DNA from: a virus
Lineage: Duplodnaviria; Caudoviricetes
DNA length: 64,000 nucleotides
IMG/VR virus record: IMGVR_UViG_3300033407_000010
Location: 217 to 64,216 of that record
Strand: one strand, 5' to 3'
Below the pieces are notes generated by a model. The model made no database searches and had not been told where the DNA came from. It saw only the letters and a program-made list of their open reading frames with translations. The translations under genes were made by a program, and so were the position numbers. Below, piece by piece: positions 4,041-17,126 of this stretch (positions within the stretch are counted from its first letter, which is position 1; each line of letters opens with the position of its first letter).

Positions 4041-4321
4041 ACGGCCATCCGGCAATTGATTGGATGTTCGCGCCTCGCGCCCGCGTGCATGTCTACCGTC
4101 TGCCGGCGAAACTCACGAACGGCTATTGCTTTGATGGCGGCCATCCGATCGTGTTCCTGAACGTCGACTGGTTTGACGCGGTCATCTCCGAAGGCCGCGA
4201 CCCGCTGGTGAAATTCATCAAAGGCAAACGGTACTTCGACCAGCGCGGCCGTTTCCTTGTGCTCGCCAGTCACCCTGACCTGACGTTTACAATCGATCCT
4301 GCGGAGGCCGGCGGTGGCTGA
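4037..4321 (+). CDS. Hypothetical phage protein
   Basis: 94 aa; ATGA overlap. Confidence 0.6.
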   Translation: MNGHPAIDWMFAPRARVHVYRLPAKLTNGYCFDGGHPIVFLNVDWFDAVISEGRDPLVKFIKGKRYFDQRGRFLVLASHPDLTFTIDPAEAGGG

Positions 4322-4523
4322 CACCAATCAAAACACCGGCCCGCGCAAACTGGTGTGGCTTCGCGTCCACGGCCGCGACGTGCCGCAGGTCTGGTTCGAG
4401 CCGTACGTCGGCACGGACGGGCAGGCCCCAGTCGCATCTCACGTGATCCCGCCGCACCACTACGGGATGACGTTCGACGAGTTGGTGGCGATTTATCCGG
4501 CGCCGGTCCAGGAGGAAGCATGA
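4314..4523 (+). CDS. Hypothetical phage protein
   Basis: 69 aa; GGAGG upstream of GTG. Confidence 0.55.
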   Translation: MADTNQNTGPRKLVWLRVHGRDVPQVWFEPYVGTDGQAPVASHVIPPHHYGMTFDELVAIYPAPVQEEA

Positions 4524-11627: not shown

Positions 11628-11786
11628 ATGCGGCACCCCCGGCAACCCCTCAAAAGCGGCCCTCCGGAGCCCAAGCCGGCGCCGCCCGCGCCTGTGGTTA
11701 ACGTCGCCAGGGCCATTGCCCGGATGATGGCCCGCGAGGATCATGACCGCGAGGCCGATAGTTTTACCCAAACCGACCCAAAATGA
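11628..11786 (+). CDS. 52-aa ORF coupled to the integrase (possible directionality or regulatory factor)
   Basis: MRHPRQPLKSGPPEPKPAPPAPVVNVARAIARMMAREDHDREADSFTQTDPK*; TGA overlaps integrase ATG; translated by hand. Confidence 0.5.
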   Translation: MRHPRQPLKSGPPEPKPAPPAPVVNVARAIARMMAREDHDREADSFTQTDPK

Positions 11787-13447
11787 CCCGCGCCGCGATC
11801 TACGCCCGCTTCTCCTCCGAGCTCCAAAGCGATCGCTCGATCGACGACCAGGTCGTGCTCTGCCGGGAGTACGCAGCCCGTCACGGCTGGACCGTGACCG
11901 AAGCCTACGCCGATTACGCCGTGTCCGGATCGTCGGTGCACGGTCGCTTCGCCTTCGAGCGCCTGGTGGCCGACGCTCGCGCGGGGCGCTTCGACATCAT
12001 CCTCGCCGAAGATCTCGATCGGCTCTCGCGCAACCAGGCCGACATTGCCGGACTCTATGAGCGCATGCAGTTCGCCGGCGTGAAGCTGTGGACCGTGGGC
12101 GACGGCGAAATCTCCGAGATGCACATCGGCCTCAAAGGCACGATGAGCGCGCTGTTTCTCAAAGCCCTCGTGTTGAAGATCCACCGCGGCATGGCCGGCC
12201 GCGTGCGCGCCGGCAAGAACCCCGGCGGCATCGCCTACGGTTACCGTGCCGTCAGGATGATCGACGACCGCGGTGAGCCGGTGCGCGGCGAGCGCTCGAT
12301 CGACGAGCAGGAGGCCGCCGTCGTCCGGCGCATCTTCGCCGACACGCTGTCGGGGAAGACACCGCGCGAGATCGCGGCCGCGCTCAACAGCGATGGCGTG
12401 CCGAGCCCGCGCGGCGGCCACTGGAACGCCTCGACGATCCACGGCTCGCGCAAGCGCGGTACCGGCATCCTGCGCCAGGAGCTCTACGCCGGCCGGATGG
12501 TCTGGAACCGCCAGCGGTTCGTGAAGAACCCCGACACCGGCCGCCGGGTCACGCGCACGAACACGGCCGCCCAGCATCAAGCCGCCGACGTGCCGCAGCT
12601 GCGGATCGTGGACGACGGCGATTGGCTCAAGGTGCAGGCGCTGTTGGTGGCGCGCGGCGGGCCGCATGCGTCTCATGCCCGCAAGTCGCCGCATATCTTT
12701 TCGGGCCTGATGCGGTGCGGCGTCTGCTGCGGCAAGTACGTTTCCGCCGGCGGCAGCAAGTACCCGCGGTTCATCTGCTCGCGGCGCAAGGAGAGCGGCA
12801 CCTGCACGAACACCAGGATCGTCTCGGCCAGGATCATCGAGGACCGCACGCTCGCCGCTCTCGAGCGCGACCTGCTCGACGAGCGGCTGGTTGCCGAGGT
12901 CGTGCGCGAATACACGATCGAGCGCCAGCGTCTCAAGTCGAGTCGGCGGCAGCACGAACGGCGGGCGGCGAATCGTCTAGGCGAGATCGACCGGGCGGTG
13001 CGCGGGCTTGTCGCTCTGGTGGAAGCCGGTGCGGATCCCGCCTCCGTCATGCCGCGTCTGCGCGAGCTCGAAGGCGAGCGCGCCGCCATCAAGGCGGAGC
13101 GGCCGCATCCCGGCCGCGAGGTCATCGAGCTTCATCCCGGCATCGGCGATCGCTACCGCGCAATCGTGCGCGACTTGCGCGCGTCGCTTGGCACCAGGAC
13201 CGCGGACCGCAAGATTGACGTCATCGCGTCGGTGCGCAGCCTGGTCGACCGGATCGTGGTCTACCCGCACGATGACCCGGCCGGACGCGACCTTGAGCTC
13301 GTGGGCCAGCTCGCGGGGCTTCTCGGTACGGCCGAGCAGGTGGTTTCTGGTATGATGGCCGTGGTAGCGGGGGAGGGATTTGGGCGCCCTCATACCAGCG
13401 GCCGGTTCCAGCCGGTGATCATCCCGTTCCGCTCGGTGGCCGCGTAG
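11783..13447 (+). CDS. Large serine recombinase (phage integrase)
   Basis: AAIYARFSSELQ catalytic motif, ILAEDLDRLSRN, YAGRMVWNR recombinase domain, Zn ribbon FSGLMRCGVC...FIC...C, coiled coil. Confidence 0.95.
   Translation: MTRAAIYARFSSELQSDRSIDDQVVLCREYAARHGWTVTEAYADYAVSGSSVHGRFAFERLVADARAGRFDIILAEDLDRLSRNQADIAGLYERMQFAGVKLWTVGDGEISEMHIGLKGTMSALFLKALVLKIHRGMAGRVRAGKNPGGIAYGYRAVRMIDDRGEPVRGERSIDEQEAAVVRRIFADTLSGKTPREIAAALNSDGVPSPRGGHWNASTIHGSRKRGTGILRQELYAGRMVWNRQRFVKNPDTGRRVTRTNTAAQHQAADVPQLRIVDDGDWLKVQALLVARGGPHASHARKSPHIFSGLMRCGVCCGKYVSAGGSKYPRFICSRRKESGTCTNTRIVSARIIEDRTLAALERDLLDERLVAEVVREYTIERQRLKSSRRQHERRAANRLGEIDRAVRGLVALVEAGADPASVMPRLRELEGERAAIKAERPHPGREVIELHPGIGDRYRAIVRDLRASLGTRTADRKIDVIASVRSLVDRIVVYPHDDPAGRDLELVGQLAGLLGTAEQVVSGMMAVVAGEGFGRPHTSGRFQPVIIPFRSVAA
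13362..13381 (-). other. Putative attP core identical in layout to a tRNA 3' end
   Basis: Reverse complement AAAT-CCCTC-CCCCGCT-A-CCA parses exactly as T-loop end, 5-nt T stem, 7-nt acceptor strand, discriminator, CCA; lies inside integrase codons VVAGEGF. Confidence 0.75.
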
Positions 13448-13452
13448 AACAC

Positions 13453-13492
13453 AAAAAAAAGCCCCGCCACCCGGCGAACCGGACAGCGGGGC
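13453..13492 (-). terminator. Intrinsic terminator (minus strand)
   Basis: Minus strand GCCCCGC-TGT-CCGG-TTCG-CCGG-GTG-GCGGGGC followed by T8. Confidence 0.8.
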
Positions 13493-13505
13493 ATGTAGCC
13501 ACGCG

Positions 13506-13700
13506 GTGGGGGGATGTGAAGTGATGACTTGGGCCAGGCGCATGACCAACGAAGAACTTCGATCGGAGGAGTACGACTTAAAACAGCATATTGATTCTGG
13601 CGAGCGCGACGGCATCGCAGCAAGCCGATGGGCGGTCGATAGGTTGGATAAGATCTCAACCGAGCAGCGTCGGAGGGTTAACCCACCTAAAGCGATGTAA
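13506..13700 (+). CDS. Hypothetical protein
   Basis: 64 aa ORF; true start probably internal (MT...). Confidence 0.4.
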   Translation: MGGCEVMTWARRMTNEELRSEEYDLKQHIDSGERDGIAASRWAVDRLDKISTEQRRRVNPPKAM

Positions 13701-13710
13701 CAATTCGTGA

Positions 13711-13761
13711 TTAGGCTACTGCCTAACAGGACTCGACTTAGGCAAAAGCCTAATATAGATT
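13711..13761 (+). promoter_or_regulatory. Sigma70-type promoter with two palindromic operators
   Basis: TTAGGC-tact-GCCTAA 13711-13726 and TTAGGC-aaaa-GCCTAA 13738-13753; -35 TCGACT 13733-13738, 17-bp spacer, -10 TAGATT 13756-13761. Confidence 0.75.
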
Positions 13762-13824
13762 ATTGACTGTCAGCAGGAGCTGACGCCCGGCGCCTCGTGG
13801 GTTTCAGGGGTGGAGACAGACCCG

Positions 13825-14178
13825 ATGACACGCTATATCGCATCGATCGACAACGACATGAACATCAACTCCAAAAACCCAACCGCATGGCGGGTCAGCG
13901 TTTTCCCAGAGACCCTGGACGCCCCGTGGACGCGTCCTGCTGGCCAGTGGTTTCAAATCGTCCCGGTGCATAACAACAGCCGGACAGACCGCGCCTGTTT
14001 CGAATCGCGCCGCGAGGCGCTGATCGCTATCCTCGATTTCATCGGCACTCCGTGCGTGATCCGCGACACGCAATTCGGCATGGAGGAATCTTTGATCGTG
14101 ACAGGGCACGGCGCTAAATCACCGGCGCGCGTCGTGGCCTCACGGTCGGCAAGCGGCACGTTTGTGCAGGATCGATAA
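13825..14178 (+). CDS. Orphan protein, first gene of the accessory operon (anti-defence candidate)
   Basis: 117 aa from ATG 13825 with GGAG RBS. Confidence 0.65.
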   Translation: MTRYIASIDNDMNINSKNPTAWRVSVFPETLDAPWTRPAGQWFQIVPVHNNSRTDRACFESRREALIAILDFIGTPCVIRDTQFGMEESLIVTGHGAKSPARVVASRSASGTFVQDR

Positions 14179-14189
14179 ATGATCCCAAC

Positions 14190-14276
14190 CCGTTCCCCGC
14201 ACACGCGGGGATGAACCGAGCACCGGACGCAGAGGCCGCAGAGGCCGCCGTTCCCCGCACACGCGGGGATGCTCGC
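14190..14276 (+). CRISPR. Cas-less type I-E CRISPR mini-array (full repeat, 29-nt spacer, 3'-degenerate repeat)
   Basis: CCGTTCCCCGCACACGCGGGGATGAACCG 14190-14218; spacer AGCACCGGACGCAGAGGCCGCAGAGGCCG 14219-14247; second copy identical for 24 nt from 14248; stem CCCCGC/GCGGGG and ATGAACCG handle typical of I-E. Confidence 0.9.
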
Positions 14277-14391
14277 TTGACGGCCCCGCCGTCCGCAAGT
14301 TCCGGGAGGCCACTGGCCTCCCCCTGAAGCGCCGCACTACAGAGCGAATGACGCTCGCAACGGGCAACCCCGCCCTTTGATGGAGAGACAG

Positions 14392-14685
14392 ATGACCGAT
14401 CTTGAAGCCCTGGTTTCGATATCTCAAACCGCGATGCGCGCCCGTGGTCAGTGGTGCGTGGATGGTATTGACGAAACCCTTCGGCGCGACATTCGCGCCA
14501 TGGTCGGGGATTGCGCCAAACTGCTGGGGCTTTCGATGGATTATTCGGAAACGCTTGAAGGCATGGCCGTGCGAGAACTTGAGCGACGCGCCACACCCGG
14601 CAGCATTGAGTGCCCCCATTGTCATTGGGGCTTTGCACCGGCTGTGGTCGATCAGCATATCCGCGAAAAGCACGGGGAGGGCTGA
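14392..14685 (+). CDS. Small orphan protein with C-terminal C2H2-like zinc finger
   Basis: CPHC...VDQHIREKH; GGAGAG RBS. Confidence 0.65.
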   Translation: MTDLEALVSISQTAMRARGQWCVDGIDETLRRDIRAMVGDCAKLLGLSMDYSETLEGMAVRELERRATPGSIECPHCHWGFAPAVVDQHIREKHGEG

Positions 14686-14688
14686 GCC

Positions 14689-14889
14689 ATGGAGCCCAAG
14701 ATTTTGAAGGATGGCAGGGAAACCTACGCCGTGATTGGCGCATCCGGCGCCCGCGCAGGATCCATCCAGCGGGTTGGCCCGAAGAATGGTGGAATGTGGG
14801 AGGTCCAGATGCTCGCCTCCCCGCGTGAAATGGTTCGATTTTTTAAGGATGCCAAGGCAGAAGCCATCGAACTGGCGCGGAGGTATTGA
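14689..14889 (+). CDS. Small orphan protein
   Basis: 66 aa; GGAGGG RBS. Confidence 0.65.
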   Translation: MEPKILKDGRETYAVIGASGARAGSIQRVGPKNGGMWEVQMLASPREMVRFFKDAKAEAIELARRY

Positions 14890-14933
14890 GCCATGCCGCC
14901 GGGTGCCGACGTTCTCCAATGGGAACACCTGCC

Positions 14934-15149
14934 ATGACCCCTCGCCAATTCGCCGCTATCAGAAAGCGCCTCGGCCTGTCGGCTTACGCGATGGGCAAGG
15001 CGCTTGGGTACGAGGGCAACCGCAACACGTTGCAGGTCGGAATCAGGAAATACGAATCAGGCGAACGGGAATTGCCGCCGTGGATCGCCCGGCTCGCTGA
15101 GATGTACGACGCGCACGGCGTACCGGGAAAATATCTGCCGGACGCGTGA
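14934..15149 (+). CDS. XRE-like HTH regulator (Aca-like position)
   Basis: MTPRQFAAIRKRLGLSAYAMGKALGY...IRKYESGERELP. Confidence 0.8.
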   Translation: MTPRQFAAIRKRLGLSAYAMGKALGYEGNRNTLQVGIRKYESGERELPPWIARLAEMYDAHGVPGKYLPDA

Positions 15150-15249
15150 TGCATTGCCCCCTAGATTGTGTTAGGGTGATTGAGATGAAACTTGCAGAGC
15201 AGTTGGAAGCCGCCAAGGCCGAAGTCGCTACTCACAGGCGGTGCGTGTG

Positions 15250-15480
15250 ATGCCCGGGCACTTTCCTTCGGGATCATCCCGCATTGACCGGCGGGACGCG
15301 CGAGTGAAGCGCGTTCACATTGTGAACGGCGGGAACACGACACTCTGCAATCGCCCGAAAACTGAGGGCGACATAGTGGTCACACTCTATAGCTCCGTCG
15401 GTGAGCGCGCGCAGCCATCCAACACTTGCAAGGTGTGCAGGAGGGTCTGGAAGGGCCACCACCGATCATCGTTCCAGTAG
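15250..15480 (+). CDS. Hypothetical Cys-containing protein
   Basis: TLCNRP...TCKVCRRVW; last + gene before convergent late operon. Confidence 0.4.
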   Translation: MPGHFPSGSSRIDRRDARVKRVHIVNGGNTTLCNRPKTEGDIVVTLYSSVGERAQPSNTCKVCRRVWKGHHRSSFQ

Positions 15481-15536
15481 CGCCCGGCACGCACTGACGC
15501 CCCGCCCGTAGTTCTAGCTGGCACGCTTCACCTTGA

Positions 15537-15758
15537 TCACGCAGGCTCGCCGTCCTTCGTACACTGAAACTTTGAATGAACTTCCATTTCCCATGCCCCC
15601 TTGACGGCACCGCGAATCCAATCCTGAGCGCGTGGCGTCATCTTCTCAGCGAACGCTTGGCACGCCGCCATAGTCTTGAACTTTGTCGCGTCTTGAATCT
15701 GTGCCGGCGCTGGGCCTTGCGGAGTCATCACGAGAAATAGCCAAACGAGGGTGAACAT
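15537..15758 (-). CDS. Small exported protein
   Basis: Hydrophobic N-terminus MFTLVWLFLVM; two Cys. Confidence 0.6.
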   Translation of the reverse strand: MFTLVWLFLVMTPQGPAPAQIQDATKFKTMAACQAFAEKMTPRAQDWIRGAVKGAWEMEVHSKFQCTKDGEPA

Positions 15759-15774
15759 ATGGGTTAGCCCCCTC

Positions 15775-15888
15775 TTATTTCACAGCGAGTAAGTAAATCC
15801 AAAACCCGCCGCCAATCACCGCGCTGACGAAAACAACGACGATGCCGACGATCAAGATATCGACGGCGTGCTCTATGGTGACGCGCAT
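15775..15888 (-). CDS. 37-aa membrane peptide
   Basis: MRVTIEHAVDILIVGIVVVFVSAVIGGGFWIYLLAVK; TAATG overlap. Confidence 0.5.
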   Translation of the reverse strand: MRVTIEHAVDILIVGIVVVFVSAVIGGGFWIYLLAVK

Positions 15889-16061
15889 TAGTGCAACGGG
15901 GGGCCGAACGTCTTCCACCCAAGCAAGAGCAGAAGGACGAACAGCAGAACGGTGTTGCCAATCGGGCCGTAGTGGCCAACGGCATTGCCGGGCCAGTTCC
16001 ACGCCAGCCCGAACACAAACCACAGCAGCATCAGAATCCAGAACAGAAGTCCCATCGACAT
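15888..16061 (-). CDS. 57-aa two-TM membrane protein
   Basis: MSMGLLFWILMLLWFVFGLAWNW...LLFVLLLLLGWKTFGPPLH; translated by hand. Confidence 0.65.
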   Translation of the reverse strand: MSMGLLFWILMLLWFVFGLAWNWPGNAVGHYGPIGNTVLLFVLLLLLGWKTFGPPLH

Positions 16062-16073
16062 TGCCAGTCTCCT

Positions 16074-16238
16074 TTAGAGTTTCCCGAGCAGAACGAGAAT
16101 CAGCACGACAACCAGCACGGTGCCGAGACTGATCCCGCCGTAGTGGCCCGTCCCGTAAAAGTGCCCGCCGCCGATTCCGCTGAACCCGCCGAGCAGCAGC
16201 ACGACAAGAAGAATGAGCAAGATCGTTCCGAGTGACAT
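16074..16238 (-). CDS. DUF3309-like small membrane protein
   Basis: MSLGTILLILLVVLLLGG...YGGISLGTVLVVVLILVLLGKL; GGAGG RBS. Confidence 0.75.
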   Translation of the reverse strand: MSLGTILLILLVVLLLGGFSGIGGGHFYGTGHYGGISLGTVLVVVLILVLLGKL

Positions 16239-16247
16239 GATAGCCTC

Positions 16248-16340
16248 CTAGTATCGCCCAACTGCAAAATTCGCGATCACCCACAAGGCGATTCCAATAA
16301 CGATCAGAATCCCGAGATAGGTGAACGCGTCCTTCAACAT
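16248..16340 (-). CDS. 30-aa membrane peptide
   Basis: MLKDAFTYLGILIVIGIALWVIANFAVGRY; AGGAAG RBS. Confidence 0.5.
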   Translation of the reverse strand: MLKDAFTYLGILIVIGIALWVIANFAVGRY

Positions 16341-16347
16341 TGGCTTC

Positions 16348-16839
16348 CTACTTTGCGTAGGTCAGTATCGCGATGATGGTGCTGACGATGGCAACAACGA
16401 CCGCTCCGATTGTGATCGCCATCGATCCGACCGTCTTTGCCCCCACACTCTGTCCGGCTTGCGTGGCCAACCCGAGTTCCAGACTCTTGACGCCGCCCGG
16501 CAGGTTGACAATTCCAAGCTCCACGCTTTTCAGCCGCGCCTCGAATGTCACCGCCTGAAGATCGGCTTTGCGCTGCCACTCTATCAACTCGGCACGCCCC
16601 CGTTCGTGCAGTTCGCGGGGCAAATAAGTGCCGAGGATTTGCCGCGCATCTTCGTGCGCGTGATTGAGAATTTCCAGCCGGCGCTCGGTCTCCCTCGCCT
16701 GGAGTTCAAGCGCCTTTGACAGGTTCGCCAATTCTCGGTCCAGCCGGGATTGATCCTCCGTGCGCATGGCATCGCGCAGGCGGTTGTTTTCCGCGATGAC
16801 GCGCTCGATGAAGTCGCGCAGGGATACGTGGTCGTTCAT
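16348..16839 (-). CDS. Coiled-coil protein with C-terminal TM (lysis module)
   Basis: C-terminal MAITIGAVVVAIVSTIIAILTYAK. Confidence 0.6.
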   Translation of the reverse strand: MNDHVSLRDFIERVIAENNRLRDAMRTEDQSRLDRELANLSKALELQARETERRLEILNHAHEDARQILGTYLPRELHERGRAELIEWQRKADLQAVTFEARLKSVELGIVNLPGGVKSLELGLATQAGQSVGAKTVGSMAITIGAVVVAIVSTIIAILTYAK

Positions 16840-17126
16840 TTCGACAACTCGATCTTGCGATCTTCCGAGCGGCGGAGTTGGTCACGGGCGCGGCCCAGTT
16901 CCTCATTCCATGCCCGCGACGACGGCGTGCCGTCGTCAACCTTTGGGGCGAGTAGGATCAGACTGCGGACCTTGTTGCCGTAGGTCTCGATTGCGACATC
17001 AGCCTGCTGTAGGTCAAGCCGCTTGATATCGCCGGACCAGGCGAGGAAGCTGGAGAGATAGGCGAGTACGCCGCCGATGGCGATCAGTGCCGTACAGCCA
17101 CCGCCGATCTTGACAAGCCAGGTCAC
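16836..17126 (-). CDS. N-terminal TM protein (holin/antiholin candidate)
   Basis: IGGGCTALIAIGGVLAYLSSFLAW; GTGA overlap with o-spanin stop. Confidence 0.55.
   Translation of the reverse strand: MTWLVKIGGGCTALIAIGGVLAYLSSFLAWSGDIKRLDLQQADVAIETYGNKVRSLILLAPKVDDGTPSSRAWNEELGRARDQLRRSEDRKIELSK

Follow-up and report, generated by a model that had tools for sequence, protein, structure and literature searches.

A candidate counter-defence operon with a type I-E CRISPR-like RNA unit in a temperate phage from a soil metagenome

The element considered here is a cassette of small genes and a two-repeat unit of the kind found in arrays of short palindromic repeats that are clustered and regularly interspaced (CRISPR), lying at 13825-15149 of a virus genome (Duplodnaviria; Caudoviricetes) recorded in IMG/VR as IMGVR_UViG_3300033407_000010. 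The record measures 64,216 bp, is 96% complete and has a soil metagenome as its source, and the stretch analysed, called the window in what follows, comprises its positions 217 to 64,216 (64,000 nucleotides, nt), that is, nearly all of it. The cassette lies in a 2-kb gap with the integrase on one side and, on the other, the point where the late genes of the - strand end, and all of its parts are on the + strand in the order open reading frame (ORF) 1, two-repeat type I-E unit, two hairpins, ORF2, ORF3 and a gene for a helix-turn-helix (HTH) protein. This layout agrees with a first-pass annotation of the sequence, which had placed there three ORFs of 117, 97 and 66 amino acids (aa), co-oriented with the array and followed by an XRE-like HTH, in the interval that separates the integrase from the end of the late operon and on the strand opposite to the late genes, with two hairpins after the array. 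The reading that is preferred here, tentatively and with less than even confidence, is that the cassette is a combined RNA-plus-protein counter-defence operon of which the RNA is the active core. The features on which the discussion turns are the following (GC1, GC2 and GC3 are the guanine + cytosine (G+C) contents at the three codon positions, and pLDDT is the predicted local distance difference test).

11783-13447, + strand: large serine recombinase (integrase), with the Pfam domains Resolvase, Recombinase and Zn_ribbon_recom
13711-13726, no strand: palindrome 1, TTAGGC-N4-GCCTAA, perfect 6-4-6, candidate operator
13738-13753, no strand: palindrome 2, TTAGGC-N4-GCCTAA, candidate operator, overlapping a TAATAT -10-like hexamer
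13825-14178, + strand: ORF1, 117 aa, orphan, GC3 0.72 > GC1 > GC2, GGAG 9 nt before the ATG
14190-14218, + strand: repeat 1, a complete 29-nt type I-E repeat by array match
14219-14247, + strand: spacer-like segment of 29 nt between the repeats, with GCAGAGGCC twice
14248-14276, + strand: repeat 2, hairpin intact, last 5 nt ATGCTCGC and not ATGAACCG
14304-14322, + strand: 8-bp G+C hairpin, GGGAGGCC-ACT-GGCCTCCC, with no U tract and not called as a terminator
14342-14356, + strand: 5-bp hairpin, GAGCG-AATGA-CGCTC, from sequence and fold
14392-14685, + strand: ORF2, 97 aa, member of a phage early-protein family, predicted three-helix bundle with a C2H2-like zinc-finger tail
14689-14889, + strand: ORF3, 66 aa, predicted four strands and then a helix (model pLDDT 74)
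14934-15149, + strand: HTH gene, 71 aa, XRE/BldD-like, with Pfam, PHROG and PDB profile matches

The G+C content of the cassette (0.58-0.62) is lower than that of the core genes (0.65-0.69), which fits acquired cargo. A scan of 13300-15800 called no + strand terminator, and the spacing is tight, with 11 nt from the stop of ORF1 to repeat 1 and 3 nt from ORF2 to ORF3, so that the cassette is consistent with a single transcription unit. In addition, GGAG-type ribosome sites are situated 8-9 nt 5' of each of ORF1, ORF2 and ORF3. An Rfam scan of 12000-17000 matched no family, and neither blastn with the locus nor tblastn with ORF2 gave a match among the cultured phages of INPHARED. Of the sequencing runs, a listing names the probable source soil metagenome as the sole holder, with no RNA run beside it.

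The RNA unit is the best-supported part of the locus and, judged from its sequence, a plausible and credible anti-CRISPR or Cascade-hijacking element. The 27-mer core of its repeats is identical to the repeats of type I-E arrays at at least 120 genome loci; since this core is common to many phyla (Alpha-, Gamma- and Deltaproteobacteria, Acidobacteria and others), it marks the CRISPR type and does not identify the host, and the first-pass suggestion of an action against type I-E is accordingly conjectural. The repeat hairpin core is found at these two sites only in the 64 kb, where 0.06 matches are expected per shuffle, and the 96%-complete record contains no cas genes and no further repeats. 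The 231-nt intergenic region that holds the unit folds far better than its shuffles (z = -4.3). Furthermore, decay is confined to the 3' end of repeat 2, which lies outside the predicted mature RNA, and the same is true of a comparable unit in an unrelated phage that is described below. In the predicted fold, the spacer bases GGACGC (14225-14230) pair with GCGTCC-like bases at 14290-14295 and so enclose repeat 2, a pairing which, if the model is right, could modulate the access of Cas6e or could be incidental.

The spacer sets the unit apart from an ordinary array. The repeat period is 58 nt. In 78 host arrays that carry the same repeat, 93% of the 2,397 intervals measure 61 nt and another 5% measure 62 nt, with 11 (0.46%) at 59 nt or less and just two at 58 nt. 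Consequently, the spacer, which is 3 nt below the length of 93% of the host-array spacers and has a 9-nt duplication inside it, is not typical of acquired spacers. The scarcity of 58-nt periods in host arrays offers a simple means of telling true guides apart from units with a regulatory or decoy role. A protospacer turned up neither in the window nor in 2.9 million IMG/VR contigs, 241 million JGI metagenome records or the fetched I-E loci, every sixth base having been left free in the IMG/VR and JGI searches. An anti-CRISPR role of the RNA is made plausible by the non-canonical length of the spacer together with the lack of any target in these searches. Three matches to a 23-nt truncated spacer pattern (22-24 of the 29 bases) were set aside as chance-like, as they have no AAG or ATG protospacer-adjacent motif.

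Two classes of published RNA offer the closest comparisons, and the element resembles these more than it resembles a normal guide. RNA anti-CRISPRs (Racr) are solitary repeat units, unassociated with other full or partial repeats, which are expected to draw Cas6 and Cas7 away from immune CRISPR RNAs (crRNAs); the type I-E examples RacrIE1 and RacrIE2 have been validated, and acr (anti-CRISPR) genes are enriched near racr, as in the acrIC5-RacrIC1 locus (Camara-Wilpert et al. 2023, PMC10651486). Like them, the unit in the window is a phage-borne repeat mimic, a cas-less element predicted to be co-transcribed with small genes. Unlike them, it consists of two repeats with a near-full-length spacer, and thus is not solitary, and it would yield a crRNA-like product whereas a Racr yields a repeat-only RNA. 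Cracr elements, on the other hand, are viral repeat-spacer-repeat units with a shortened spacer, 21-24 nt in the published I-E cases such as the CracrIE array of the Salmonella enterica Se29 prophage, whose RNAs load into Cascade, repress the cas/creT promoter and are often encoded alongside Acr proteins (Liu et al., bioRxiv 10.1101/2024.10.29.618823). The window unit shares with them the cas-less repeat-spacer-repeat format on a temperate phage, the I-E repeats, the partly degenerate downstream repeat and the small protein genes alongside. Its spacer, at 29 nt against the canonical 32 nt, is non-canonically short but longer than theirs, and no match of it to a cas/creT promoter or to a host CreR could be shown. 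As combined acr-racr (PMC10651486) and Cracr-acr (bioRxiv 10.1101/2024.10.29.618823) loci have already been published, the window locus adds a candidate and not a new principle.

Other viruses carry similar units. A pattern scan of IMG/VR gave 85 stretches in which two or more I-E-type hairpins occur, including about 25 distinct interior units of two to four repeats, most of them at the canonical 61-nt period, in contexts that range from positions between structural genes and behind Rha/KilA-N regulators to positions before terminase, primase or deaminase genes. The clear parallel to the window locus is that of the unrelated 49-kb phage G002 (L024, G002:C1:257-837), which has an 88-aa ORF without an assigned family, then an I-E unit of two repeats around a 33-nt spacer, the second repeat being degenerate at its 3' end, and then a gene for a 64-aa HTH that starts right at the end of repeat 2. 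The best solved relative of this HTH is Aca10 (7xi5, E 8e-4), and it scores 21.7 bits against Pfam Aca2_YdiL, for which the cut-off is 23.8. The G002 locus is a stronger acr-aca-like candidate than the window locus.

Proteins of the anti-CRISPR-associated (Aca) families bind operators and repress their own operon, and it is of interest to compare the terminal HTH protein of the cassette with them. This protein matches phrog_14076, 'transcriptional regulator' (E 8e-10), and Pfam HTH_31 just below the 27-bit cut-off (24.2 bits, E 4e-5). It has one homolog, in phage G001, which is 62% identical (ratio of non-synonymous to synonymous substitution rates, dN/dS, about 0.24) and is encoded by the last gene of a 5-kb + strand operon. 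The promoter of that operon (L022, G001:C1:139-170) is a strong TTGACA-16-TAATAT with TTAGCC-AGCA-GGCTAA in the promoter spacer, and the pattern TTAGNC-N4-GNCTAA occurs as a single copy in the 58-kb G001 contig, where about 0.014 copies are expected by chance according to our own calculation. In the window, palindromes 1 and 2 are the only two perfect copies of TTAGGC-N4-GCCTAA in 64 kb, and palindrome 2 is followed by TAT as in the G001 promoter, by which the TAATAT hexamer is formed. The candidate operators of the two phages differ by a symmetric one-base change beside HTH proteins that are 62% identical, and this matched change lends good comparative support to the view that members of the HTH family repress the operon which they close. 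The HTH protein of the window, therefore, probably autoregulates its operon via the predicted operators. The interpretation of 13710-13754 as one long inverted repeat and a possible attP site of the serine integrase was dropped in favour of two separate 16-bp palindromes.

The suggestion of the first-pass annotation that the block is an acr-aca-like locus stands in respect of its architecture. As in the operons of Aca1, Aca2, Aca3 and Aca10, small genes without an assigned role are followed by a terminal small HTH, the candidate promoter has inverted repeats in a pair, and the comparative evidence suggests that the HTH controls the operon it ends; the I-E unit belongs to the same picture. It does not stand in respect of family membership since, unlike those operons, the cassette ends in a BldD/XRE-like HTH that matches none of the Aca families represented in the PDB or Pfam, the operon of the HTH homolog is not an acr operon, and neither ORF1 nor ORF2 nor ORF3 matches a known Acr by sequence in the PDB, Pfam, NCBIfam or PHROGs. 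A profile built from four HTH sequences does match Aca10 (7xi5, PMC9410881), Aca2 and Aca3, as well as HigA2 and Xre antitoxins (E about 1e-3), and its Aca matches stem from the HTHs of G002 and of the locus L013 described below, above all from that of G002, and not from the window HTH.

Searches of ORF0 to ORF5, the frames of the region, against Pfam, PHROGs, NCBIfam, PADLOC and the PDB sequences matched the HTH protein only, and ORF1, ORF2 and ORF3 accordingly have no recognised family, as had been said of them. ORF1 is an orphan in the strict sense, with no homolog besides itself among 5.8 billion proteins and with sub-threshold leads only, none above chance, in the ESM Atlas; that it is a coding gene is suggested by its codon-position G+C pattern and its ribosome site. 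ORF2, ORF3 and the HTH gene, by their substitution patterns, are real genes under strong purifying selection: the non-synonymous and synonymous divergences (pN and pS) are 0.08 and 0.75 for the N-terminal domain of ORF2 against its relative in L013, and 0.16 and 0.75 for ORF3 against its one homolog, which is 72% identical and lies in another context (L018). For ORF3, Foldseek against the PDB and VIA wide gave no clear neighbour (best Z 3.9), and the ESM Atlas gave leads below threshold only.

ORF2 belongs to a small family, of which a word search finds nine relatives and HMMER, run over 1.84 billion representatives, finds 35 clusters. A search of IMG/VR with its alignment confirmed no relatives. 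In the AF2 model, residues 1-68 form a three-helix bundle (pLDDT above 90 for residues 1-70), for which Foldseek against the PDB and BFVD gave no clear fold neighbour, and the tail, C-x2-C-x11-H-x4-H (CPHC...HIREKH), is poorly modelled. The C2H2-like finger that had been noticed in one of the ORFs is this tail, and since it recurs in P0033, a family member that is 41% identical, it is a genuine optional module of the ORF2 family. The similarity between the window and L013 reaches about 40 nt upstream of the ORF2 start, which indicates that ORF2 arrived together with its own leader, and the CRISPR unit of the window stands where L013 has its promoter and operators. In the loci L013-L017, the ORF2 relative is directly followed by a gene for a 69-aa weak XRE HTH and has twin palindromes upstream, those at L013:1290-1340 being TAGGGC-N5-GCCCTA-like and situated at the promoter before the ORF2 relative. 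This two-gene unit is acr-aca-like, and equally toxin-antitoxin-like or Cro-like. The ORF2 family, with about 35 clusters, is a widespread first early gene with no assigned role and may merit testing of its own.

The preferred reading of the cassette, the counter-defence operon, can be put together as follows. A temperate phage would carry, beside its integrase and converging on the end of its late genes, an accessory operon acquired apart from the core genome. Transcription would probably start at the promoter overlapped by the two TTAGGC-N4-GCCTAA operators and the transcript would span ORF1, the CRISPR-like unit, ORF2, ORF3 and the HTH gene, whose product most likely binds the candidate operators and shuts the operon off, as Aca proteins do. 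In a type I-E host, Cas6e would be expected from established I-E biology to cut at the base of both repeat hairpins, to produce a single crRNA-like RNA of 58 nt, in which a 29-nt guide stands between an 8-nt 5' handle and a 21-nt hairpin. This RNA would load into Cascade in place of the immune crRNAs and act either as a decoy, like a Racr, or by steering Cascade to a host promoter such as that of cas, like a Cracr, and ORF1, ORF2 and ORF3 would be candidate protein partners of the RNA. Besides the selective decay of repeat 2, the rare repeat period, the lack of a protospacer in the searches, the signs of a single transcription unit and the link between HTH and candidate operators, what was counted for this reading is that the I-E repeats are canonical and non-random in a record with no cas genes or other repeats, that the layout has a parallel in G002, and that acr-racr and Cracr-acr co-location has been published. 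If it is true, an alphaproteobacteria-like soil phage example joins the RNA-based anti-CRISPRs against type I-E, there are three Acr candidates, namely an orphan, a three-helix zinc-finger protein and a beta-alpha protein, and a BldD-like HTH with a defined 16-bp operator would be a new Aca-type regulator.

A considerable number of results weigh against this reading. On the side of the RNA, the 29-nt spacer is longer than the 21-24 nt of the I-E Cracr elements and is not a multiple-of-6 reduction from 32 nt, the window has a single unit where Cracr arrays have two or more, and the match of the spacer to cas promoters at about 120 I-E loci was no better than that of a reversed-spacer control. 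On the side of the regulator, the candidate promoter of the cassette scores 8 of 12, has a weak -35 and was not called by the sigma-70 scan at its threshold. Among solved structures the HTH, by itself or in a two-sequence profile with its homolog, finds only the DNA-binding domain of BldD (2ewt, E 0.002 with the profile), and the comparison with Aca families, which covered those represented in the PDB or Pfam, gave no match to the PDB chains of Aca2, Aca3 and Aca10 by phmmer or the two-sequence profile and none to Pfam Aca2_YdiL at E up to 1. The neighbourhoods of homologs, which the first-pass annotation had named as a check, point elsewhere as well. The operon of the HTH homolog in G001 contains SNF2-related and PAPS-reductase/DUF3440 genes, a gene for a Cys-rich 132-aa protein and others, one of which we take to be ParB-like, and this is not an acr set. 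In seven contexts examined, the ORF2 relatives are typically the first gene behind an early promoter, with replication, methylase or nuclease genes as neighbours, and have no CRISPR repeats nearby; one of them diverges from a gene that reads by eye as Cro/CI-like (no match in Pfam). ORF2 can be read equally well as a generic early or host-takeover protein with its own leader, and both its relatives and those of the HTH point to generic early-operon roles. Of the 46 ORFs that flank about 25 other viral I-E mini-arrays, Pfam identifies only two as XRE HTHs, and a general rule that mini-arrays adjoin an HTH, which had been considered, fails on this count. Finally, no protein of the cassette matches a known Acr or Aca in the PDB, Pfam, NCBIfam or PHROGs, and the fold searches with ORF2 and ORF3 gave no clear match, so the earlier proposal that ORF1, ORF2 and ORF3 are new anti-CRISPR proteins is a positional inference only.

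A different explanation, unlikely on balance, is that the cassette is a commonplace early or moron operon that controls itself through the HTH, in which ORF2 and ORF3 have host-takeover or regulatory functions and the CRISPR unit is the functionless or decaying tail of a host array, captured with the last spacer and a degenerate terminal repeat. The generic character of ORF2 relatives as first early genes, the HTH homolog at the end of what is a DNA-metabolism operon, and the orphan ORF1 with its evidence from codon composition would all be at home in such an operon. As for the captured tail, a host array typically closes with a repeat that has degenerated at its 3' end, like repeat 2, and viral I-E mini-arrays occur in very diverse contexts, even between structural genes. 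However, neutral decay would not be expected to leave both repeat hairpins and all of repeat 1 perfect, the unrelated phage G002 has the same ORF-array-HTH order with the same selective decay, and the spacer length is atypical for an array end.

There are viral mini-CRISPR arrays that serve inter-virus conflict, and the unit of the window is likewise a short cas-less array in a virus genome. It is nevertheless quite improbable that it is a working guide, with which the prophage borrows the Cascade-Cas3 of its host against a competing phage or plasmid (superinfection exclusion) while the ORFs are unrelated cargo. The repeat-spacer-repeat is complete with its 5' handle and 3' hairpin intact, many of the other viral two-repeat I-E units at the canonical 61-nt period are probably true guides, and the cassette is located at the integrase-proximal end of a temperate phage, the usual place for genes expressed in the lysogen. 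Unlike such guide arrays, however, the window unit has a spacer of atypical length, 3 nt too short for the great majority of host spacers, for which neither the viral contigs nor the metagenome records yielded a target, and captured protospacers do not usually contain a duplication like the 9-nt one inside it.

A toxin-antitoxin-like or abortive module formed by ORF2 and/or ORF3 with the HTH, in which the small protein upstream would be the toxin and the HTH the autoregulating antitoxin, the array being incidental, is very improbable, for although the HTH weakly matches the antitoxin HTHs of the MqsA family (NCBIfam TIGR03830, E 0.002, far below the cut-off), the mixed HTH profile reaches HigA2 and Xre antitoxins and the ORF2 relative of L013-L017 directly precedes a small HTH behind twin palindromes, no toxin family of Pfam, NCBIfam or PADLOC matches ORF2 or ORF3, most ORF2 relatives have no adjacent HTH, and ORF2 is a plain three-helix bundle.

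Within the counter-defence reading, a more elaborate and highly speculative version, to which little credence is given, is that the CRISPR unit serves as a Cas6e-cleavable joint in the operon mRNA, by means of which the operon would detect the very defence that it opposes. In a cell with active type I-E proteins, the cut would separate ORF1 and the decoy RNA from the part with ORF2, ORF3 and the HTH gene, the new 5' end of the latter would be buffered by the two downstream hairpins, and the balance between repressor and cargo would depend on the CRISPR proteins of the host. What bears on it is that the unit is embedded between genes in a strongly structured region with no terminator and that the G002 unit sits directly in the leader of the HTH gene.

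The surroundings of the cassette have several further features. The early genes (exonuclease, RecT-like, HNH and ParB-like) are on the + strand up to about 10 kb, and from about 15.5 kb onward the - strand carries the endolysin-like and tail genes. The integrase stop is immediately followed, at 13455-13492, by a strong intrinsic terminator for the - strand, with a 14-bp G+C stem followed by U8 on that strand (A8 before the stem on the + strand), and no obvious - strand gene ends at it; it could stop an antisense or leftward transcript from near the twin palindromes, or act as an insulator at the end of the prophage. ORF0 (58 aa, 13524-13700), which lies between the integrase and the candidate operators, is without a family match, and a role as recombination directionality factor or as small regulator is conceivable for it. 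In addition, a 79-aa ORF at 15241-15480, 3' of the HTH gene, has a GTG start, a GC3 of 0.72 and CxxxxC...CxxC spacing, with weak matches to zinc-ribbon models only (Dof, E 0.04), and may be a fifth gene of the cassette.

Two more of the viral mini-arrays are worth recording. On the - strand of L003 (IMGVR_UViG_2894279714_000004), at about 4300-4520, four I-E-type repeats are placed about 50 nt apart, and their spacers, which are 21-23 nt long, are similar to one another (TATCGCAT...GCGGACT), which is the format that has been described for multiplexed Cracr arrays against variant cas promoters. Moreover, the four viral contigs L152, L175, L197 and L201 share a two-repeat I-E unit of canonical period, which is wedged between a gene for a 214-aa protein and a collagen-repeat, tail-fibre-like gene and is thus a conserved mini-array inside a structural module.

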